Shown here: positions 1 to 6,877 of the stretch, piece after piece
How positions within the stretch are numbered: the first letter of the stretch is position 1
Layout of the letters: each line of letters opens with the position of its first letter
Assembly: GCA_016198705.1 (NCBI GenBank)
Contig: JACQIA010000002.1
Coordinates: 1,521-65,520 of the forward strand
Origin: Candidatus Aenigmatarchaeota archaeon
GTDB lineage: Archaea > Aenigmatarchaeota > Aenigmatarchaeia > CG10238-14 > SCSR01
Reading direction: 5' to 3'
Length of the DNA stretch: 64,000 nt
Notes under the pieces: generated by a model
Seen by the model: only the letters and a program-made list of their open reading frames with translations
Databases searched by the model: none
Told to the model about the DNA's origin: nothing
Program-made: the position numbers and the translations under genes

Positions 1-1108
1 CTGTCTTGCTCCTTATTGCATCGCCAAATTTCGACTTTATCATGTGAAAGACTGTTTCAGCATTTGACCTCTTGTGGTAGTGTTCTGTGAACTCGCCGTG
101 CTTATACATGAAATAATACCACATCTTATGCCAAGTCGAAGAGCCATTGGCTCTCGGTGTTGTATTCTTTTTGAACGGGATATACGGCATAGCCCCGATT
201 TCTTTTATAGCATCCAAGTTGTTCCTTGAACTGTAACCCATGTCCGCACTCAATTCCTTAATCTGAAAATGCTCTGATGTTTCTATCATCAAAGGCTGTA
301 GGAACTTTGTATCATGTTCGTGTGCTGTTGTTACCTGTAATGCCGTGACTATGTTCGTCTTAACGCCACTCATTACATGAGCCTTCAACCATTTTCTGAT
401 ATTCTTCTCTTTACCGTATTTGTAATCAAACCAACGGTCAAACCTTGATGTTGAAAACCCAGTAGAGTCTACTGTAAAGTCTTGTTCTACCGATTTCAAA
501 GGCAGACTGGATATTGTGATTAATTCCTTTATTACCTGTGTTAACTCTGGATTTTCCATGTAGTATGCGACACTTGAGTAATGCGGGACTTTTCGGATAT
601 ATCCAAATTCTTGTGCGATCTTCATGTCTGATGTGAATCTTCTTAGTGAGAATGTTGTAAATACTTTGAGAGCAGATGAAAATACCATATCTGATAGAAG
701 TAACTTTGGTCTACCGAAAACATACTGCGGTTGCTGTATGGTCTTGCACAAGTCATTCAGTAATTTCAGGAACAACTCCTTTTGTTGGGTTTGCGATTTG
801 TCGTAAGCTACCCAGTCTTGGGAATAAGTCACCTTTTTAGTAACTGTAATATTACCTTGTTCGTCAATTTGCTTCTTTACAATTATTTCCACTGCAAACT
901 GATGTTTGCACTTAATCCGTCTCTTTTCAAAATCGGGGCATGAGCAAGTAGGCATGTCTTTCTCTAATTTCACAGTATAAGAACCGTTGCCTGTTTGGGA
1001 CGGCACAAGCCACTTGTCGCCCAAATAAGTAAGCTTTGAAGATTTGACAATCTCTTTACCTCTTAATTTTCTATCTTCAAGCAGTTGGTTATAGTCCATT
1101 TCAATCAT
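1..1108 (-). CDS. DDE transposase, IS4/IS5 family, N-terminal SWIM zinc finger; 3' end (C-terminus) cut by the window
   Basis: Own translation of the minus strand gives MIEMDYNQLLEDRKLRGKEIVKSSKLTYLGDKWLVPSQTGNGSYTVKLEKDMPTCSCPDFEKRRIKCKHQFAV ... SADMGYSSRNNLDAIKEIGAMPYIPFKK ... HYHKRSNAETVFHMIKSKFGD, which carries the YREK motif. Confidence 0.7.
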   Translation of the reverse strand, partial: MIEMDYNQLLEDRKLRGKEIVKSSKLTYLGDKWLVPSQTGNGSYTVKLEKDMPTCSCPDFEKRRIKCKHQFAVEIIVKKQIDEQGNITVTKKVTYSQDWVAYDKSQTQQKELFLKLLNDLCKTIQQPQYVFGRPKLLLSDMVFSSALKVFTTFSLRRFTSDMKIAQEFGYIRKVPHYSSVAYYMENPELTQVIKELITISSLPLKSVEQDFTVDSTGFSTSRFDRWFDYKYGKEKNIRKWLKAHVMSGVKTNIVTALQVTTAHEHDTKFLQPLMIETSEHFQIKELSADMGYSSRNNLDAIKEIGAMPYIPFKKNTTPRANGSSTWHKMWYYFMYKHGEFTEHYHKRSNAETVFHMIKSKFGDAIRSKT

Positions 1109-1120
1109 CACTACCTATAC

Positions 1121-1140
1121 TATATACCTTTAGGTATATA
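1121..1140. promoter_or_regulatory. Perfect 8-bp inverted repeat (TATATACC-TTTA-GGTATATA) in the divergent region between the transposase and the Zn-ribbon ORF; TATA-box-like
   Basis: Read directly from the sequence; it lies 13 nt upstream of the transposase ATG. Confidence 0.3.
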
Positions 1141-1229
1141 TACTTAACAGTAGTTCACTTCCGATGGCATTAGGCTTATAAGCATCGTATACCATATTTA
1201 TATTACTCAAGTGATTGAGGTAAAGTATC

Positions 1230-1397
1230 ATGATAGAATGCCCTAAGTGCCACCATAAATGGGATAACCGCCTCGAATGCAAGAGGTGCGGTCACAAGTG
1301 GTATCAAAAAACATCTGAATTGCCAGAAGTATGTCCCAATCCAGAATGTAAAAGCCCATACTGGAACAAACCAAGGAAAAAGAAGGGGAAGGCATGA
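1230..1397 (+). CDS. Small zinc-ribbon protein (55 aa, CPKC...CKRCGH...CPNPEC)
   Basis: ATG at 1230 and TGA at 1395-1397, overlapping the methyltransferase ATG at 1394. Translation is MIECPKCHHKWDNRLECKRCGHKWYQKTSELPEVCPNPECKSPYWNKPRKKKGKA. It falls below the 60-aa cut-off of the ORF track. Confidence 0.4.
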   Translation: MIECPKCHHKWDNRLECKRCGHKWYQKTSELPEVCPNPECKSPYWNKPRKKKGKA

Positions 1398-2302
1398 AAG
1401 CCGAAGTGGGATTGCAAGGGTTTAAAACTACGAGAGAGATTATTCTAAATGATTACATGCAGATAAGACTAGACGGAAAAGTAAACGGCACAAGAATACC
1501 ACAGCCATTCTTAAAATGGGCTGGTGGCAAAAGGAATCTCATCAATGAAATTCTTGGCAAACTGCCTGAAAAATTCAACAATTATCACGAGCCTTTTATC
1601 GGCGGGGGAGCGGTTTTCTTTGCGGTTGGAAACAAGGCAAATCATTCTACAATTTCGGACAGCAATCTCGAGCTAATCATGACTTTCAAGGTAATACAGA
1701 AGAACCCAAAAGCACTCATCGAGAAACTGAAAATACACGCATCGAAGCACTCTGAAAAATATTTTAGTGAGATAAGGGGACAAGAACCTGCAGATCCAAT
1801 AGACATAGCCTCACGCATGATATACCTGAACAAGACCTGCTACAACGGGTTATATCGGACAAATAAGAATGGCAAATTCAATGTCCCTTTCGGGAAAAAC
1901 AACAGCCCCAACATTGTGCAAGAAGAAAATATTTTATCATGCCACGAGTTTCTGAAAGATACTAAAATATTATTCGGGGATTTTGAGACAATAAATCCGC
2001 AGAAGGGCGATTTTGTGTATTTAGATCCGCCCTACCACCCCACGGGCGAAATGTCCTTTACAAAATACACGAAGGAAAACTTCACGGAAAGAGACCAGTT
2101 GAGATTAAGGGACTTCATAGCAAGGCTGACAAAGAATGGCGTTTTTGTCATGCTGTCAAACTCTAATACAAAGTTCATAAATGATTTGTATGGCGACAAG
2201 AAGTTCAAGAAAGACATAGTGCTGTCGCCCAGATTCATAAACTGCAAACCGAACGAAAGAAACGAAGTGGAAGAACTTTTAATTACAAATTACCAATTGT
2301 AG
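1394..2302 (+). CDS. N6-adenine DNA methyltransferase, Dam/D12 class (alpha group)
   Basis: Motif I FLKWAGGKRNLI and motif IV DPPY (YLDPPYHPT) in Dam-like order; 302 aa. Confidence 0.85.
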   Translation: MKAEVGLQGFKTTREIILNDYMQIRLDGKVNGTRIPQPFLKWAGGKRNLINEILGKLPEKFNNYHEPFIGGGAVFFAVGNKANHSTISDSNLELIMTFKVIQKNPKALIEKLKIHASKHSEKYFSEIRGQEPADPIDIASRMIYLNKTCYNGLYRTNKNGKFNVPFGKNNSPNIVQEENILSCHEFLKDTKILFGDFETINPQKGDFVYLDPPYHPTGEMSFTKYTKENFTERDQLRLRDFIARLTKNGVFVMLSNSNTKFINDLYGDKKFKKDIVLSPRFINCKPNERNEVEELLITNYQL

Positions 2303-2305
2303 CTT

Positions 2306-2764
2306 ATGAAACAAGGGACATACGCAAACTATACAGGAGATAAACTTCAAAAATTTATTTTCAACAATCTTGTTGAGAAAGGATATACCTTAATAGACAG
2401 GAAGAAATTCGACTCTTCGAAATACCTTGAACAGCCTATATTTGCAACTGAGTATACCGTTGGGAAAAGCATATACGAGACTAAGATTGATTGTGATTTT
2501 ATAATATTTCACCCTAAAAAATTCCCGAATTGCCTGATTATAGAGTCCAAATGGCAAGAATCTACTGGCTCAGTTGACGAAAAGTTTCCTTATCTTGTTT
2601 ACAATATCAAGAAATGCTACCCATGTGCTACAATTGTTGTCTTGGACGGCGGGGGCTACAAAAAGGAAGCTGAGCAGTGGCTGAGAAAACAAGTTGGCGG
2701 TAAGCTCGTCAAGGTGCTAAACATGAGGGAATTTCAGAAGTGGTCTAACAGCGAAGAATTATGA
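2306..2764 (+). CDS. Predicted PD-(D/E)xK nuclease, candidate cognate restriction endonuclease of the Dam-like methyltransferase
   Basis: 152 aa with E...IDCDFIIF...LIIESKWQ fitting the (P)D...ExK catalytic pattern. It starts 4 nt after the methyltransferase stop, so the two are probably co-transcribed. Confidence 0.4.
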   Translation: MKQGTYANYTGDKLQKFIFNNLVEKGYTLIDRKKFDSSKYLEQPIFATEYTVGKSIYETKIDCDFIIFHPKKFPNCLIIESKWQESTGSVDEKFPYLVYNIKKCYPCATIVVLDGGGYKKEAEQWLRKQVGGKLVKVLNMREFQKWSNSEEL

Positions 2765-3544
2765 GTTCAACAAATCTTGTTTTAAAGCTTCTAAAAAGGC
2801 TTTTATATCAATCAGAAGTTTTTCTTGCAATGCCAAAAATTCACTTGAGTTCAGTCCTATAACACTACTTTTACCCGCATATTTCAAACAGCTCTGAGCA
2901 ACGAGTCTTTTTGTCTTTTCTGGATCATCTACCAAGTCTAGATCATGCACGGGAAATGTTCTTAGGTGTTTGATATGAAATATAATAAAATCATCTATGC
3001 TTTTAGATTCACCGTTTTCAATAATTGTATAGAACTTTTTTGGTATTCGAAGATGACGCTCTTCTGATGCACCTTCATAAAATATCTTATATAATGCCAC
3101 AATAAATTTTTGAAAGTGTTCTTGAGTTTTAACTGGTATACGAATTTGACTAAAACTTGCCAGTGAAGTATGTGTCACTCTAAAAATGACTCCAGTTTCC
3201 TTTGATTCGGAGAGATTATTACAATCGGAAATTAAAATTCCTAACTCATCAGATAACTTTCCAAATAATTGAGCTTTTCCATGATGAACAGAACCAATAA
3301 GCCTGTATTCAGACGATTCACTAAAAATGAATTTAGGTATTTTATCATTCTCAATTTCGTTGTTTATTTTCTGTAATAAAGCAGTCCTAACAAGGGGCAA
3401 ATTTTTTTCTAATATGCTTGAAACTTCTAATTCCTCGCTAACGCCAGTTGCTCGGATAATTTCCGATATTTCACTCTCTAAATCAATAGTTTTAGTATCG
3501 GGTAGGTTCCATATAGTAGTTACAATATCTTCATAAGATATCAT
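2759..3544 (-). CDS. Hypothetical protein (261 aa), downstream partner of the ParB-like gene with a 4-nt overlap
   Basis: Complete ORF overlapping the upstream gene by ATGA; no motif recognised. Confidence 0.4.
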   Translation of the reverse strand: MISYEDIVTTIWNLPDTKTIDLESEISEIIRATGVSEELEVSSILEKNLPLVRTALLQKINNEIENDKIPKFIFSESSEYRLIGSVHHGKAQLFGKLSDELGILISDCNNLSESKETGVIFRVTHTSLASFSQIRIPVKTQEHFQKFIVALYKIFYEGASEERHLRIPKKFYTIIENGESKSIDDFIIFHIKHLRTFPVHDLDLVDDPEKTKRLVAQSCLKYAGKSSVIGLNSSEFLALQEKLLIDIKAFLEALKQDLLNS

Positions 3545-4650
3545 TTTATTCCCAATGCTTTTAAATGAGCTTCTACAATTTTTTTCAAATCGTTAAGCAA
3601 ATCCACAAACTTCTCAGAACCATTCGATAGTTTTATTTTAACATCAGGTAGATTCTCTATCTGGGAATTTAATTCTTTTAATTTCCTTAGCCACTCCTCA
3701 AGTTCTTTCGGCTCTTCTTCCAAATTCCATATTTCATATTTAAGGCGGTTTATATGCATATCAACACTCGATTCAAACTTCTTGAAAAGACTTGGATAAT
3801 TAACCATGGCTTTTGCCACAAAATCTCGAACATCATTAGATCGTTCAATCCTTGGCGGATTACCTTCAACACTGACTATCCAAGATAGATATTTTCTAAG
3901 ATTCTCGATGTTTTTGAAATGTTTCTCCTTTTCATCCCATTCAAGCCATTGTTGTATAGGGGTGTTTATTGCTGTGAAAATGGCTTCTTGAAAGAAGCTG
4001 AAATCGTCTTCCTTCAGATATTCACCAAATTCTTCATCTTGAGTGCTTTGTTCATACGCATAATAAGAACGCATCAATCTTGCTGACTTTATAGAACCTA
4101 TACCAACTGCTTTTCCAGCGTCTTCTATTTTAATCTTCCTCTCTTTAACAAGTTTTATTAATAATTTTGCCTGTTGATACGGTTTCCAATTTTTAATGCC
4201 AGATATGTGCCTTATACCTTGAATTATCCAAGCTATATCAGGTTCCTTACCTTTGTAGACATAGACGGTAAATCGCAAAATGCTGTTCAGAACAGCATCA
4301 GATAGTTCTATCTCCCCACTCTCATGCTCTATCTTCAATTGTTTTATTGCCGTTATTCTTCTGTTACCTTCTACTACTACATATTTTTTTGAGTCTGCAA
4401 TACGTCTTACTACAATTTTATCTATTGGTAAAAAACCAACTCGTTTGATATTTTCTTTCAATTCTTCTATACCAAAATCGTGCATTTTTTCAAAACATGT
4501 TCTTTGTATACTTTCTTCGATTATTCTGCTATCCGATACAAGCTTTTCTTTTCCAGAGAATCTTGGATTGTTCGGATCTAAAAATACATCTTCTAAGTTT
4601 ACTTGTCTTTCTTCAAAATCGTTTAAATCAATTATTTCGTTACCATTCAT
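3541..4650 (-). CDS. ParB/sulfiredoxin-fold (ParB-like nuclease / DUF262-like) domain protein, 369 aa
   Basis: The N-terminal segment LPIDKIVVRRIADSKKYVVVEGNRRITAIKQL matches the ParB N-domain / DUF262 core (hydrophobic-x-DG-QQR/ERR-x-TA). The long C-terminal part is helical with no recognised domain. Confidence 0.55.
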   Translation of the reverse strand: MNGNEIIDLNDFEERQVNLEDVFLDPNNPRFSGKEKLVSDSRIIEESIQRTCFEKMHDFGIEELKENIKRVGFLPIDKIVVRRIADSKKYVVVEGNRRITAIKQLKIEHESGEIELSDAVLNSILRFTVYVYKGKEPDIAWIIQGIRHISGIKNWKPYQQAKLLIKLVKERKIKIEDAGKAVGIGSIKSARLMRSYYAYEQSTQDEEFGEYLKEDDFSFFQEAIFTAINTPIQQWLEWDEKEKHFKNIENLRKYLSWIVSVEGNPPRIERSNDVRDFVAKAMVNYPSLFKKFESSVDMHINRLKYEIWNLEEEPKELEEWLRKLKELNSQIENLPDVKIKLSNGSEKFVDLLNDLKKIVEAHLKALGIK

Positions 4651-4701
4651 AGTGAAACCCTTTTAATAATCTAATAAATAGAATTAAATCTTAAGAGTTT
4701 T

Positions 4702-4932
4702 ATGGCTGGTCAATATGAGCAGTTAAGCTGTCCCTTCTGCGACAAAGGCAAGATCCAATGTTTGTATTTTCCAAGTGCATGGAGTGTGAAAGCCAAAAGA
4801 ACAAAGACCTTGCCTGGGAGCGGTTCTGTTAGCAAAAGTGCTGAGGTGTGGATAATTAAAACTGGCTGTTCTGCATGTGGTAAATCCCAAGAAGAAGTTG
4901 AAAAGGAATTTAGGGATAAGGGAATTATTTAG
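4702..4932 (+). CDS. Small zinc-ribbon protein (CPFC...CSAC), 76 aa
   Basis: MAGQYEQLSCPFCDKGK...IKTGCSACGKSQ; divergent from the ParB-like operon. Confidence 0.35.
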   Translation: MAGQYEQLSCPFCDKGKIQCLYFPSAWSVKAKRTKTLPGSGSVSKSAEVWIIKTGCSACGKSQEEVEKEFRDKGII

Positions 4933-5167
4933 ACTTTTTCAACAGAATTTCGACTAAATCAACAGAAGCTACTTATTCAACAAAGCTTGTAGCAGACTAT
5001 TTTCGTGTACGAAAAATATCAGTTTTCAGACGGAATTTGTATTCAGAGTGGCTGATGGTGTTTGGAATTGAAAGGGGGAAATAGGGCGTTGTTTGGCTGA
5101 ATAAGGTTGTTTTTGGCTGATTAGAGGAACGGCAGTGATTGAAGGATGATGGAGATGGGATGGCATG

Positions 5168-6877
5168 TCAATTGCCTTCAAGCTTGGCTATTCTAGCTTT
5201 CAGCGCATCATTCTCAGCTTTCAAATCTTTGAGTGCCTGGAGCATGAGATAGGGAAGCTCCTCATTATGAATTTGCTTAATCCCATCCTTTTCTGTCACC
5301 AGTTCAGGAAGATATTGCTCTACCTGTTGGGCAATTAATCCGATCTGTGTTTCATTGCCCATGTGCATTTCAGGATATTCGTCTGAACGCCATTGGAAGT
5401 ATACTGGTTGTAATTGTGTTACTTTATCCAATACTGATGGTAATGGGGCAATATTTTTCTTGAGTTTTATATCTGAAGAACATGTGCCTGCTAGTATAGT
5501 TCCATCAGCATCTTTAACGCATCCTGTAGTTCCGGTGCCGACACGGATGTCGCCACTAACGTCTAGTTTATCTAGTGGCGCTGTTTTTCCGATGCCGACG
5601 TTGCCGGTGCTTGCAATTATTCCCAACAGTACATTTGCATTTGAATCTTGGAAAGAAAAATCTGATGCACTGCCAGCTGATTTGAAGTGAATTCCTCTAC
5701 TGGCTACAGCGGTGGTATATAAGCCTCTTTTGTTGAGAGGGCTGGTAGCACTACTATCATCGGTGGACATTGTGCCGCGTAACCCCTCGCTGGAGTGGAC
5801 ACCAATAGTGCCAAGCACACTTAACTTTTCGCTTGGAGATGCCGTCCCGATGCCGACGTTGCCCGACGTATCAATATCAATCCTGCTGAGACCATTGGTT
5901 CGTAAGCTAAGTGGGTGATTGGTTAAAGTACCTATGAGAGCATCCGTATCTCTCGATCTTAAAAATATAGTACTCCCCCCAGTCGTGCTCACTTTGATAG
6001 TTGGTTCTGTTGTTCCACCGCCACTGACTTCAAGCTTGCTACTTGGCGTCGTCGTCCCAATTCCGACGTTGCCTGATGGCGTTATAACCATCCGACTCTG
6101 TGCACCGCCAGTGCCTCCAGTTCTAAACTCAAGGTCCCCAACACCACTAGTTCCTGTTGGAGTGCCGCTTCCTATCGCGGCAGAAAAGCTTGTTGCAGTA
6201 TCACCAAAGAGAATTAGATTGTACGAACTAGATGGAGAAAGAAATTGAAGAGTTGGAACTGCGCTGTCTTCAATAAGAACATCTGTGCCTGAAGAGGAGC
6301 TTAACCCGGAAGCGCCACCAAACACGTGTAATTTTTTTGCCGGACTCGTAGTCCCGATGCCGACGCTGCCATCATCCTTGATGACCGCCAAATCACTTCC
6401 AGCGGAGCTTTGGAAATAAATGCCGTCTGGTCCTGCCGCAACAACACTTGGTACAAATAATATTGCTGGAGAGGAAATTATCTTCATAATCTGTCCTAGT
6501 ACAGTTATTATTGCTGTACTGCACATGCTGGATGTACACAATCTTAGAGTATGTTTGCCTTCTGGCAGGGATGATAGTGCTTGTATTGTTGCTGTTTGTC
6601 CTGGGGGAATTGGGAATGGGGAGATTAATAGATCAACAGGATTGCCAGCTTCAGTGGCTTTGATTTCTTTTATCGCATCTGTGCCGCTATTTATGACAGT
6701 AATGGTGTCTTTGAATGCATCAACCACTGAGAATGCTGTTGAAGTTTTGCTGGTAAAAACGCCGGAAATAAATGAATAACTAAATCCAACCAAACCAATT
6801 GTAATTATTAGTATCAATAAGGTGCCTATTATCGAGGATATTGCTTTGGCCTCTTTTTTGATTTTCATACCCATCAC
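5168..6877 (-). CDS. Surface fibre protein: class III (type IV pilin-like) signal peptide + GNVGIGTTxPxxKL tail-fibre-like repeats + C-terminal peptidase S74 intramolecular chaperone domain
   Basis: The N-terminus MKIKKEAKAISSIIGTLLILIITIGLVGFSY is a pilin-type signal. There are at least four repeats of the form GNVGIGTT(S/T/A)PxxKLxV. The C-terminus SSDIKLKKNIAPL...QIGLIAQQVEQYLPELV...LPYLMLQALKDLKAENDALKARIAKLE matches the endosialidase/tail-spike auto-cleaving chaperone domain (SDxRxKxNI ... GLIAQEVEEVLPELV). Confidence 0.8.
   Translation of the reverse strand: MMGMKIKKEAKAISSIIGTLLILIITIGLVGFSYSFISGVFTSKTSTAFSVVDAFKDTITVINSGTDAIKEIKATEAGNPVDLLISPFPIPPGQTATIQALSSLPEGKHTLRLCTSSMCSTAIITVLGQIMKIISSPAILFVPSVVAAGPDGIYFQSSAGSDLAVIKDDGSVGIGTTSPAKKLHVFGGASGLSSSSGTDVLIEDSAVPTLQFLSPSSSYNLILFGDTATSFSAAIGSGTPTGTSGVGDLEFRTGGTGGAQSRMVITPSGNVGIGTTTPSSKLEVSGGGTTEPTIKVSTTGGSTIFLRSRDTDALIGTLTNHPLSLRTNGLSRIDIDTSGNVGIGTASPSEKLSVLGTIGVHSSEGLRGTMSTDDSSATSPLNKRGLYTTAVASRGIHFKSAGSASDFSFQDSNANVLLGIIASTGNVGIGKTAPLDKLDVSGDIRVGTGTTGCVKDADGTILAGTCSSDIKLKKNIAPLPSVLDKVTQLQPVYFQWRSDEYPEMHMGNETQIGLIAQQVEQYLPELVTEKDGIKQIHNEELPYLMLQALKDLKAENDALKARIAKLEGN

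Follow-up and report, generated by a model that had tools for sequence, protein, structure and literature searches.

Organisation of the gene A-gene B locus

The window analysed in this study is a 64,000-nucleotide stretch of contig JACQIA010000002.1 from an Aenigmatarchaeota archaeon, and all coordinates given below are positions in this window. Two open reading frames (ORFs) on its minus strand, referred to as gene A (3541..4650; 369 amino acids) and gene B (2759..3544; 261 amino acids), were present exactly as outlined in a first-pass annotation, which had read them as a candidate defence module. The two frames overlap by ATGA, and translation of gene B is predicted to be coupled to that of gene A through this overlap. 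Gene A encodes a ParB/Srx N-domain followed by a helix-turn-helix (HTH) and a helical C-terminal domain, and gene B encodes its adaptor and effector partner. The pair is convergent with a Dam-family (D12) N6-adenine DNA methyltransferase (MTase) gene (1394..2302, plus strand; PF02086, 4e-58; TIGR00571, 1e-80; PADLOC MTase_II, 3e-88) and a PDDEXK_11 mini-nuclease gene (2306..2764, plus strand; PF20472, 5e-37), the 3′ end of which overlaps the 3′ end of gene B by 6 nucleotides. The mini-nuclease and the D12 MTase probably form a type II restriction pair, and the MTase is a probable self-marking component of the system. The same MTase-PDDEXK_11 combination occurs at a related locus (L001), while at another (L095) PDDEXK_11 is absent and the D12 MTase abuts the A-B pair alone.

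Domain composition of gene A

The ParB/Srx N-domain of gene A (residues ~12-135; 4246..4617, minus strand) carries the invariant elements DPNNPR (26-30), D77 and EGNRR (94-98; nucleotides 4357-4371), and is followed by a third nucleotide-binding motif, QGIRHISG..W.PYQQA (residues 144-160), and an HTH-like DNA-binding region (residues ~139-236), which together span 3943..4236 on the minus strand. The helical C-terminal domain (residues ~248-365; 3556..3909, minus strand) was delimited from the secondary structure of an AlphaFold2 (AF2) model, is kept in the long PDC-M38A forms described below, where it precedes an ATPase, and is proposed as a dimerisation or partner-docking region. An alignment of 57 sequences showed the positions P26-N-N-P-R30, D77, E94-G-x-R-R98, W141, G145, R147, H148, W155 and W238 to be invariant, and the gene A family profile aligned EGNRR onto the GERR/GFRR motifs of Noc, ParB and PadC. 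Both the ParB/Srx fold and the GxxRR nucleotide-binding motif were found in gene A, and its product is predicted to bind a nucleoside triphosphate (NTP).

The sole Pfam match of gene A was to ParB_N and lay below threshold (8e-5; 23 against a cut-off of 26.3), and the NCBIfam ParB model TIGR00180 gave 24 bits, far under its cut-off of 58.45. No GmrSD_N (DUF262) match was obtained at E<=1, the motif being EGNRR with DGQQR missing; PF14072 (DndB) was not matched in the Pfam search, nor was a DUF1524 HNH nuclease domain by either gene A or gene B. Because the ParB motifs are present and EGNRR aligns with GERR/GFRR, with neither a GmrSD_N match nor DGQQR, gene A is assigned on its sequence to the ParB-CTPase type, with a KorB/ParB-like HTH and a helical C-terminal domain, and the DUF262-like identity given in the first-pass annotation was not upheld. 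Assignment of gene A to DUF262/GmrS or DndB was accordingly rejected, on the missing family matches and the EGNRR motif. A chromosomal or plasmid ParB was also rejected, on the sub-threshold scores, almost no plasmid matches, the lack of ParA among the neighbouring ORFs and the lack of parS-like repeats, no recurring palindromes being detected in 900-5300. The full-length ParB partition match with ParA and parS-like repeats, which the first-pass annotation had named as evidence against a defence role, was not found. Among defence models, PADLOC PDLC04607 (PDC-M38A) matched gene A at E=1.5e-45 (residues 13-264 against profile positions 8-258 of 715), and about 20-22 PD-Lambda-5_A models matched its N-terminal 90-215 residues, the best at 5.8e-13.

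The gene A family and its partner genes

A word-indexed search identified 423 clusters of gene A-type proteins of about 370 amino acids from archaea and many bacterial phyla, the family being virtually absent from plasmids. From genomes and metagenomes 88 loci were retrieved and their ORFs called, yielding 81 full-length gene A homologues, and immediately downstream of 78 of these was a co-directional gene encoding 240-310 amino acids, separated by a gap of about -50 to +17 nucleotides. About 77 viral loci likewise possessed a co-directional downstream partner, and the gene A-partner pair is kept as an operon over about 150 loci. Between 55 and 62 of the downstream partners belonged to one family, in which all 51 members tested matched Mrr_cat with an invariant D...QxK motif; weak mREase_IV matches were also seen. 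One protein of 473 amino acids (P0071), considered as a ParB/HEPN fusion, was ruled out as such and represents gene A with an insertion.

Two further versions of the pair were recovered. In 13 loci a long form of ~720 amino acids corresponded to full-length PDC-M38A (8.8e-271), consisting of the gene A module joined to an AbiLi/AriA/GajA-like ABC ATPase (residues ~385-720), and its partner was PDC-M38B. The third version occupies a hotspot of P2-like phages and prophages and is exemplified by Wφ gp98 (positions 14-360 of the A1 profile, E 6e-40), which is followed by gp96 and then by a convergent C5 methylase. Phage gp96-like partners and the Mrr_cat family have their N-terminal adaptor region in common (hhalign, 89%). 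At L098 (Escherichia phage Wphi, 28708-32684), L099 and many IMG/VR loci (L122-L181) this trio was located at the P2-like hotspot beside the portal gene, and comprised a gene A-family gp98, a gp96 with the adaptor and a 'GDGGLDI..QCG' domain resembling a restriction endonuclease (REase), and a convergent C5 or D12 methylase. No description of the gp98/gp96/methylase trio was found in the literature searched, and Rousset et al. (2022) make no mention of it.

Gene B: a common adaptor with an exchanged effector

Gene B consists of an N-terminal winged-helix-like adaptor (residues 1-91; 3272..3544, minus strand), common to the Mrr_cat partner family, and a C-terminal domain designated X (residues 95-261; 2762..3262, minus strand), in which R195-x4-H200-D201 (nucleotides 2942-2962) is invariant. 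Eight close homologues were recovered, each downstream of a gene A homologue, and the AF2 model of gene B had a predicted local distance difference test (pLDDT) score of 86. Profile alignment to the Mrr_cat partner family (hhalign, 96-96.6%) covered columns 2-91 only; no Mrr_cat match was found in gene B, and none of the PADLOC families matched it. A reading of gene B as a divergent Mrr_cat nuclease was rejected, since nothing aligns past column 91 and the stretch whose spacing resembles D..QxK is modelled as helices.

In a neighbour-joining tree built from 88 gene A proteins, the nine whose partners are of the gene B type grouped together, with a Nitrososphaerota locus of the Mrr_cat type as sister, and the group lay inside the Mrr_cat-type radiation. 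As the X-type gene A clade is monophyletic and nested in this manner, the tree indicates that one single effector swap gave rise to the gene B type. At one member, L097 (198-3038), an N6_N4 MTase fragment and a separate 286-amino acid Mrr_cat protein precede gene A and an X-type gene B follows it, leaving one sensor flanked by two different effectors.

Distribution and affinity of the X domain

An exhaustive profile search recovered the X domain in 472 cluster representatives (50% identity), 70 of them at E<=1e-10, and its position was always C-terminal. Across 40 and 127 diverse copies the R and H of R-x4-H were invariant and the following D was conserved in 97%; further conserved features were an N, FKxT and YxxxYEGxG. 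Architectures included GmrSD_N+X, GmrSD_N+HNH+X, GmrSD_N+GmrSD_C+X (BrxU/HEC-05-like), NucS_C+X, a ~260-amino acid module+X, and the adaptor+X arrangement of gene B. In P0143, P0138, P0150 and P0154 the domain follows, variously, a complete GmrSD/BrxU-like enzyme, DUF262 with HNH, DUF262 on its own or a NucS-type PD-(D/E)xK nuclease. The largest class, with 35 representatives (for example Nostoc WP_334808543.1), bears the ~260-amino acid N-terminal module, which has no assigned family.

No Pfam, NCBIfam or PADLOC model covers the X domain, and public records label the proteins 'hypothetical'; its profile had no match among PDB sequences, and tblastn of phage and plasmid collections returned none. 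Several observations point towards the HEPN superfamily: R195-x4-H200 of gene B satisfies the HEPN Rx4-6H motif, three of 32 scattered weak Pfam matches were to HEPN-clan models, AbiV was among the top Foldseek matches (E~1), and the architectures, as described, correspond to HEPN fusions in the catalogue of Anantharaman et al. (2013). This is suggestive only, and X is regarded as a HEPN-like candidate nuclease whose catalytic activity and substrate are predictions from sequence. Equating X with the HEPN domain of PD-λ-5_A was not supported, as homology between X and the C-terminal half of the PD-λ-5-like ParB fusion L182 could not be detected (hhalign, 0.1%), in addition to the negative tblastn result.

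Association with DNA modification and defence genes

A DNA methyltransferase adjoined the pair in 9/9 independent gene B-type loci, with D12, N6_N4, C5 and γ-class N6A enzymes represented. In the window and at L001 a D12 MTase with PDDEXK_11 is convergent to the pair, and at L095 the D12 MTase abutting gene B is without a restriction enzyme. Upstream genes were a Vsr and a C5 methylase at L092, an N6_N4 MTase overlapping the start of gene A at L089, fragments of an N6_N4 MTase at L090 and of a D12 MTase at L091, and at L094 an ORF with LDPACGSGSF and NPPY motifs, judged by eye to be a γ-class N6A MTase; L097 has the order N6_N4 fragment, Mrr_cat, gene A, gene B. The first-pass annotation had taken the methyltransferase as part of the island setting: it is adjacent as described, and its presence in every gene B-type locus suggests that it is probably a component of the system.

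The association extended to other branches of the family. A C5 or D12 MTase was located within three genes in 39/54 distinct prophage short-form loci (72%), and MTase, Dnd, Pbe or radical-SAM genes within five genes in 29/77 genome loci, mostly of the Mrr_cat type. The immediate flanks of the pair included PbeA, DndA/B/E, MADS and PglX, BREX and pAgo genes were also found beside pairs, and in four loci the pair lay between pbeABCD and dndBCD. At L013, L024, L044 and L064 the co-directional order was PbeA-PbeB-PbeC-PbeD-gene A-Mrr_cat partner, followed in some by dndBCD. True DndB genes were separate neighbours in some loci, and identification of A-B with PbeB/C/D or another named Dnd/Pbe component was rejected since a full pbeABCD is present besides A-B.

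A B12-binding/radical-SAM protein of ~370-410 amino acids, 31-59% identical between loci, also recurs beside the A-B pair. The five loci encoding it (L094:4085-5197, L010:9347-10447, L007:4817-5956, L011:4749-5918 and L012:3265-4500) all fall inside the gene B-type clade of the tree or beside it, and the protein may represent an alternative DNA-modification module.

Flanking features and mobility of the cassette

A 55-amino acid Zn-ribbon ORF (1230..1397, plus strand) with a double CxxC and weak Zn_ribbon matches overlaps the MTase start by ATGA; it is not conserved in L001 or L095, and a role as controller protein of the restriction-modification (R-M) pair is speculative. A second CxxC (Zn-ribbon) ORF, of 76 amino acids, is divergent from gene A. 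The AT-rich intergenic region of 51 bp upstream of gene A (4651..4701) likely contains its promoter, and synteny of L001 with the window ends within this region, at 4660. At the opposite side of the block, a DDE_Tnp_1 (IS4/IS5-type) transposase remnant (5..886, minus strand) gave tblastx matches, in several frames, to the L001 and L091 transposases; it is frameshifted, with no intact ORF. At those two loci the homologous transposases are intact and adjoin the same cassette, which is read as mobile on this account, and the remnant marks the edge of the mobile block. The G+C content was 0.33-0.34 over 3001-5000 compared with about 0.38 elsewhere. Of the neighbours listed in the first-pass annotation, the Dam-like MTase, the mini-nuclease and the two CxxC/Zn-ribbon ORFs were recovered, while the transposase proved to be only this remnant.

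Other features lie beyond the island or at related loci. A 569-amino acid protein encoded beside it (5168-6877, minus strand) has a Peptidase_S74 intramolecular-chaperone domain (1e-15) of the sort that endosialidases or the tail fibres of phages typically contain, and a weak archaeal type IV pilin-like N-terminus. Between the 76-amino acid Zn-ribbon ORF and this gene are two separate tandem duplications of 20-nucleotide units (4927-4966 and 5080-5119). On an Altiarchaeales contig (L007:4420-9058), a radical-SAM/gene A/Mrr_cat-partner cassette is situated between two deoxyhypusine-synthase ORFs (103 and 309 amino acids), and looks like an insertion that split the deoxyhypusine-synthase gene.

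Comparison with known systems

The earlier statement that the pair fits no named system requires revision, as it is related to PDC-M38A, to PD-λ-5 and to HEPN-ParB-methylase operons predicted in 2013. PD-λ-5, from a P2-like prophage of E. coli ECOR7, was found to be protective by Vassallo et al. (2022), who label it 'ParB/HEPN, methyltransferase' in their supplement and describe it in the text as a compacted prophage R-M system plus abortive infection (Abi). Both systems contain a ParB-type N-domain, a HEPN or HEPN-like domain and a D12-class methyltransferase, and the window MTase matches PD-Lambda-5_B (6e-12), but it matches the generic MTase_II model far better (3e-88) and is convergent rather than co-directional. 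Additionally, ParB and HEPN form one polypeptide of about 440-500 amino acids in PD-λ-5, whereas here they are on two genes, the second with a winged-helix adaptor; the HTH and helical tail of gene A are outside the reach of the PD-Lambda-5_A models, the host is archaeal, and gene B is without a PADLOC match. With its proteins split and its HEPN-like domain apparently non-homologous, the window system falls outside PD-λ-5.

PDC-M38 is listed by PADLOC as an untested candidate, and our literature search returned no account of it. Likenesses are the match of gene A to PDC-M38A and the two-gene operon in both, and long PDC-M38A-type proteins align with the gene A family profile to about position 360, corresponding to the whole module. 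In contrast, PDC-M38A (~715 amino acids) has a C-terminal AbiLi/AriA/GajA-like ABC ATPase while gene A ends at 369 amino acids without it, and PDC-M38B is unrelated to gene B (no PADLOC match; hhalign, 0.2%). Lacking the ATPase and having another partner, the window system falls outside PDC-M38 as well. The idea that gene A and gene B represent a split PDC-M38A was rejected, the C-terminal half of that protein being the ABC ATPase.

Anantharaman et al. (2013) predicted HEPN-ParB-DNA methylase operons (MAE_28990 family, with a Swt1-like HEPN fused to ParB/DUF262+HNH), all bacterial and with no experiments. Compared by description only, these operons resemble the window system in a HEPN-type domain with Rx4-6H, a ParB-superfamily protein and a DNA methylase; their DUF262+HNH+HEPN fusions mirror X architectures, and their N-terminal modules of ~100 and ~240 amino acids fit the X-protein size classes. 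Taken together, the window system is best read, from these sequence relationships, as a split, archaeal, effector-swapped variant of a barely characterised kind that includes PD-λ-5, PDC-M38 and the ParB-HEPN-methylase operons.

More remote parallels were also considered. GmrSD, SspE, DndI and BrxU couple a nuclease with a ParB/Srx-superfamily NTPase domain, whose activity DNA modification modulates in SspE and DndI, and X is itself appended to members of this group. The GmrSD group (DUF262+DUF1524) differs in that gene A has EGNRR and not DGQQR, in that a ParB-type HTH stands where those enzymes have the ParBDB helical domain, and in that the nuclease here is on a separate protein without HNH/DUF1524. 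Menshen (NsnABC) likewise joins a ParB-superfamily DNA sensor to polymorphic nuclease effectors, but with DUF262, a separate ABC ATPase (NsnB) and inPIN effectors. Relative to the ParB, KorB, Noc and PadC clamps, the window pair is without ParA or parS repeats, has another C-terminal domain and possesses an obligatory nuclease-type partner.

Proposed mechanism and alternative explanations

The assignment of the pair to defence in the first-pass annotation is well supported by the operon in about 150 loci, the swapped effectors and the neighbouring MTase, Dnd/Pbe, BREX, MADS and pAgo genes, and a defensive role for this conserved module is almost certain. We consider it moderately probable that gene A and gene B are the sensing and killing parts of a methylation-linked defence system with the adjacent MTase as third component, a proposal built on domain composition, operon conservation, the common adaptor, the single effector swap and the MTase linkage. 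The methyltransferase, Dam-like here, would mark host DNA, and the system would read methylation or modification status. Gene A would bind DNA by its HTH, with the nucleotide-binding N-domain acting as a switch or clamp, and gene B would contact gene A by docking through its winged-helix-like adaptor and deliver the C-terminal effector. In most relatives this effector is an Mrr-type DNase, which would cleave DNA; in the DPANN-archaeal clade it was replaced once by the R-x4-H-D domain, most likely a HEPN-like nuclease. Here the cell would probably respond by cutting RNA and so enter dormancy or abortive infection ('R-M plus Abi'), the course already proposed for PD-λ-5. The main puzzle is how one sensor could serve four MTase families as well as phosphorothioation.

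That puzzle would be explained by the chief rival, which we nevertheless regard as unlikely, namely that A-B is a guard monitoring the integrity of the neighbouring MTase or R-M system and not DNA methylation itself, so that inhibition by a virus unleashes the HEPN-like RNase and causes dormancy or suicide; one sensor family could then be paired with unrelated MTase families. Such a mechanism has been proposed for R-M-linked HEPN proteins (PMC3710099), PD-λ-5 has been called 'compacted RM+Abi', and in PrrC-EcoprrI a HEPN RNase is held in check by an R-M system, although PrrC uses an ABC ATPase and not ParB. The HTH and ParB-type clamp motifs of gene A suggest DNA sensing instead, most family members carry a DNase (Mrr_cat) and not an RNase, and many have no nearby MTase.

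The loci without an MTase could alternatively be interpreted as evidence for a stand-alone type IV-like pair, in which gene A recognises foreign DNA by its modification, the part played by DUF262 in GmrSD, SspE and DndI, gene B is the nuclease and the MTases are mere neighbours within defence islands. The usual partner Mrr_cat is typical of methyl-directed enzymes, the weak mREase_IV matches agree with this, and X is fused to GmrSD-like type IV enzymes. This explanation appears less likely again, since MTases accompany all nine X-type loci and 72% of prophage loci, with frames overlapping or abutting (L089, L095, Wφ), and a methyl-directed nuclease would poison its own cell beside an active MTase of matching specificity.

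A reversal of roles, with gene A as effector (a ParB/Srx nuclease, or NTP depletion as in Osa or ToxB) and X as a sensor or regulatory module, is very improbable. ParB/Srx proteins are known in the literature as nucleases or toxic NTPases, and the occurrence of X alongside complete nucleases (P0143, P0138, P0154) is compatible with an accessory role; however, both in gene B and in DUF262+X proteins X sits precisely where the nuclease domain is otherwise placed, the invariant residues R, H and D of X look catalytic, and a conserved gene A with a variable gene B is the usual polarity of sensor and effector. Least probable of all is a function outside defence, either with gene A as a ParB/KorB/DndB-like regulator or partition protein or with A-B as a toxin-antitoxin pair stabilising the R-M/insertion sequence cassette, for although ParB+HTH resembles the KorB and VirB regulators, DndB is reported as a regulator and the block is mobile (transposase remnant, differing genomic contexts, G+C dip), there is no ParA or parS-like repeat, the ParB family score is 24 against 58 bits, the family is virtually absent from plasmids, and regulators do not typically have an obligatory nuclease-type partner whose effector is swapped.

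Returning to the methylation-linked defence system, a bolder form of it is conceivable, if doubtful. Gene A would be a nucleotide-gated ParB clamp that loads onto DNA and slides on it to survey its modification and licenses any adaptor-borne effector (Mrr DNase, REase-like gp96 or the R-x4-H-D domain), constituting a generic 'clamp-and-adaptor' form of restriction distinct from type I-IV R-M and ranging from DPANN archaea to P2 prophages. X would then be a new family of nucleases, with which GmrSD-type enzymes are armed as well.

Significance

The ParB-CTPase switch is known from chromosome segregation and from regulation by KorB, Noc and VirB. If the proposed defence function is true, this switch would also be the conserved sensor of a very widespread and largely uncatalogued defence family in bacteria, archaea and P2-like prophages, and in the window the design is plain to see, since sensor, adaptor-effector and methyltransferase each have a gene of their own. 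The X domain family, with 472 clusters all annotated as 'hypothetical protein', caps GmrSD-like restriction enzymes and merits a profile model. Defence-system finders could take up the short ParB-like protein with its adaptor-Mrr_cat partner, the P2 gp98/gp96/mth trio and the X-domain variant. The locus would also add a candidate R-M-plus-Abi system to what little is known of immunity in DPANN archaea.

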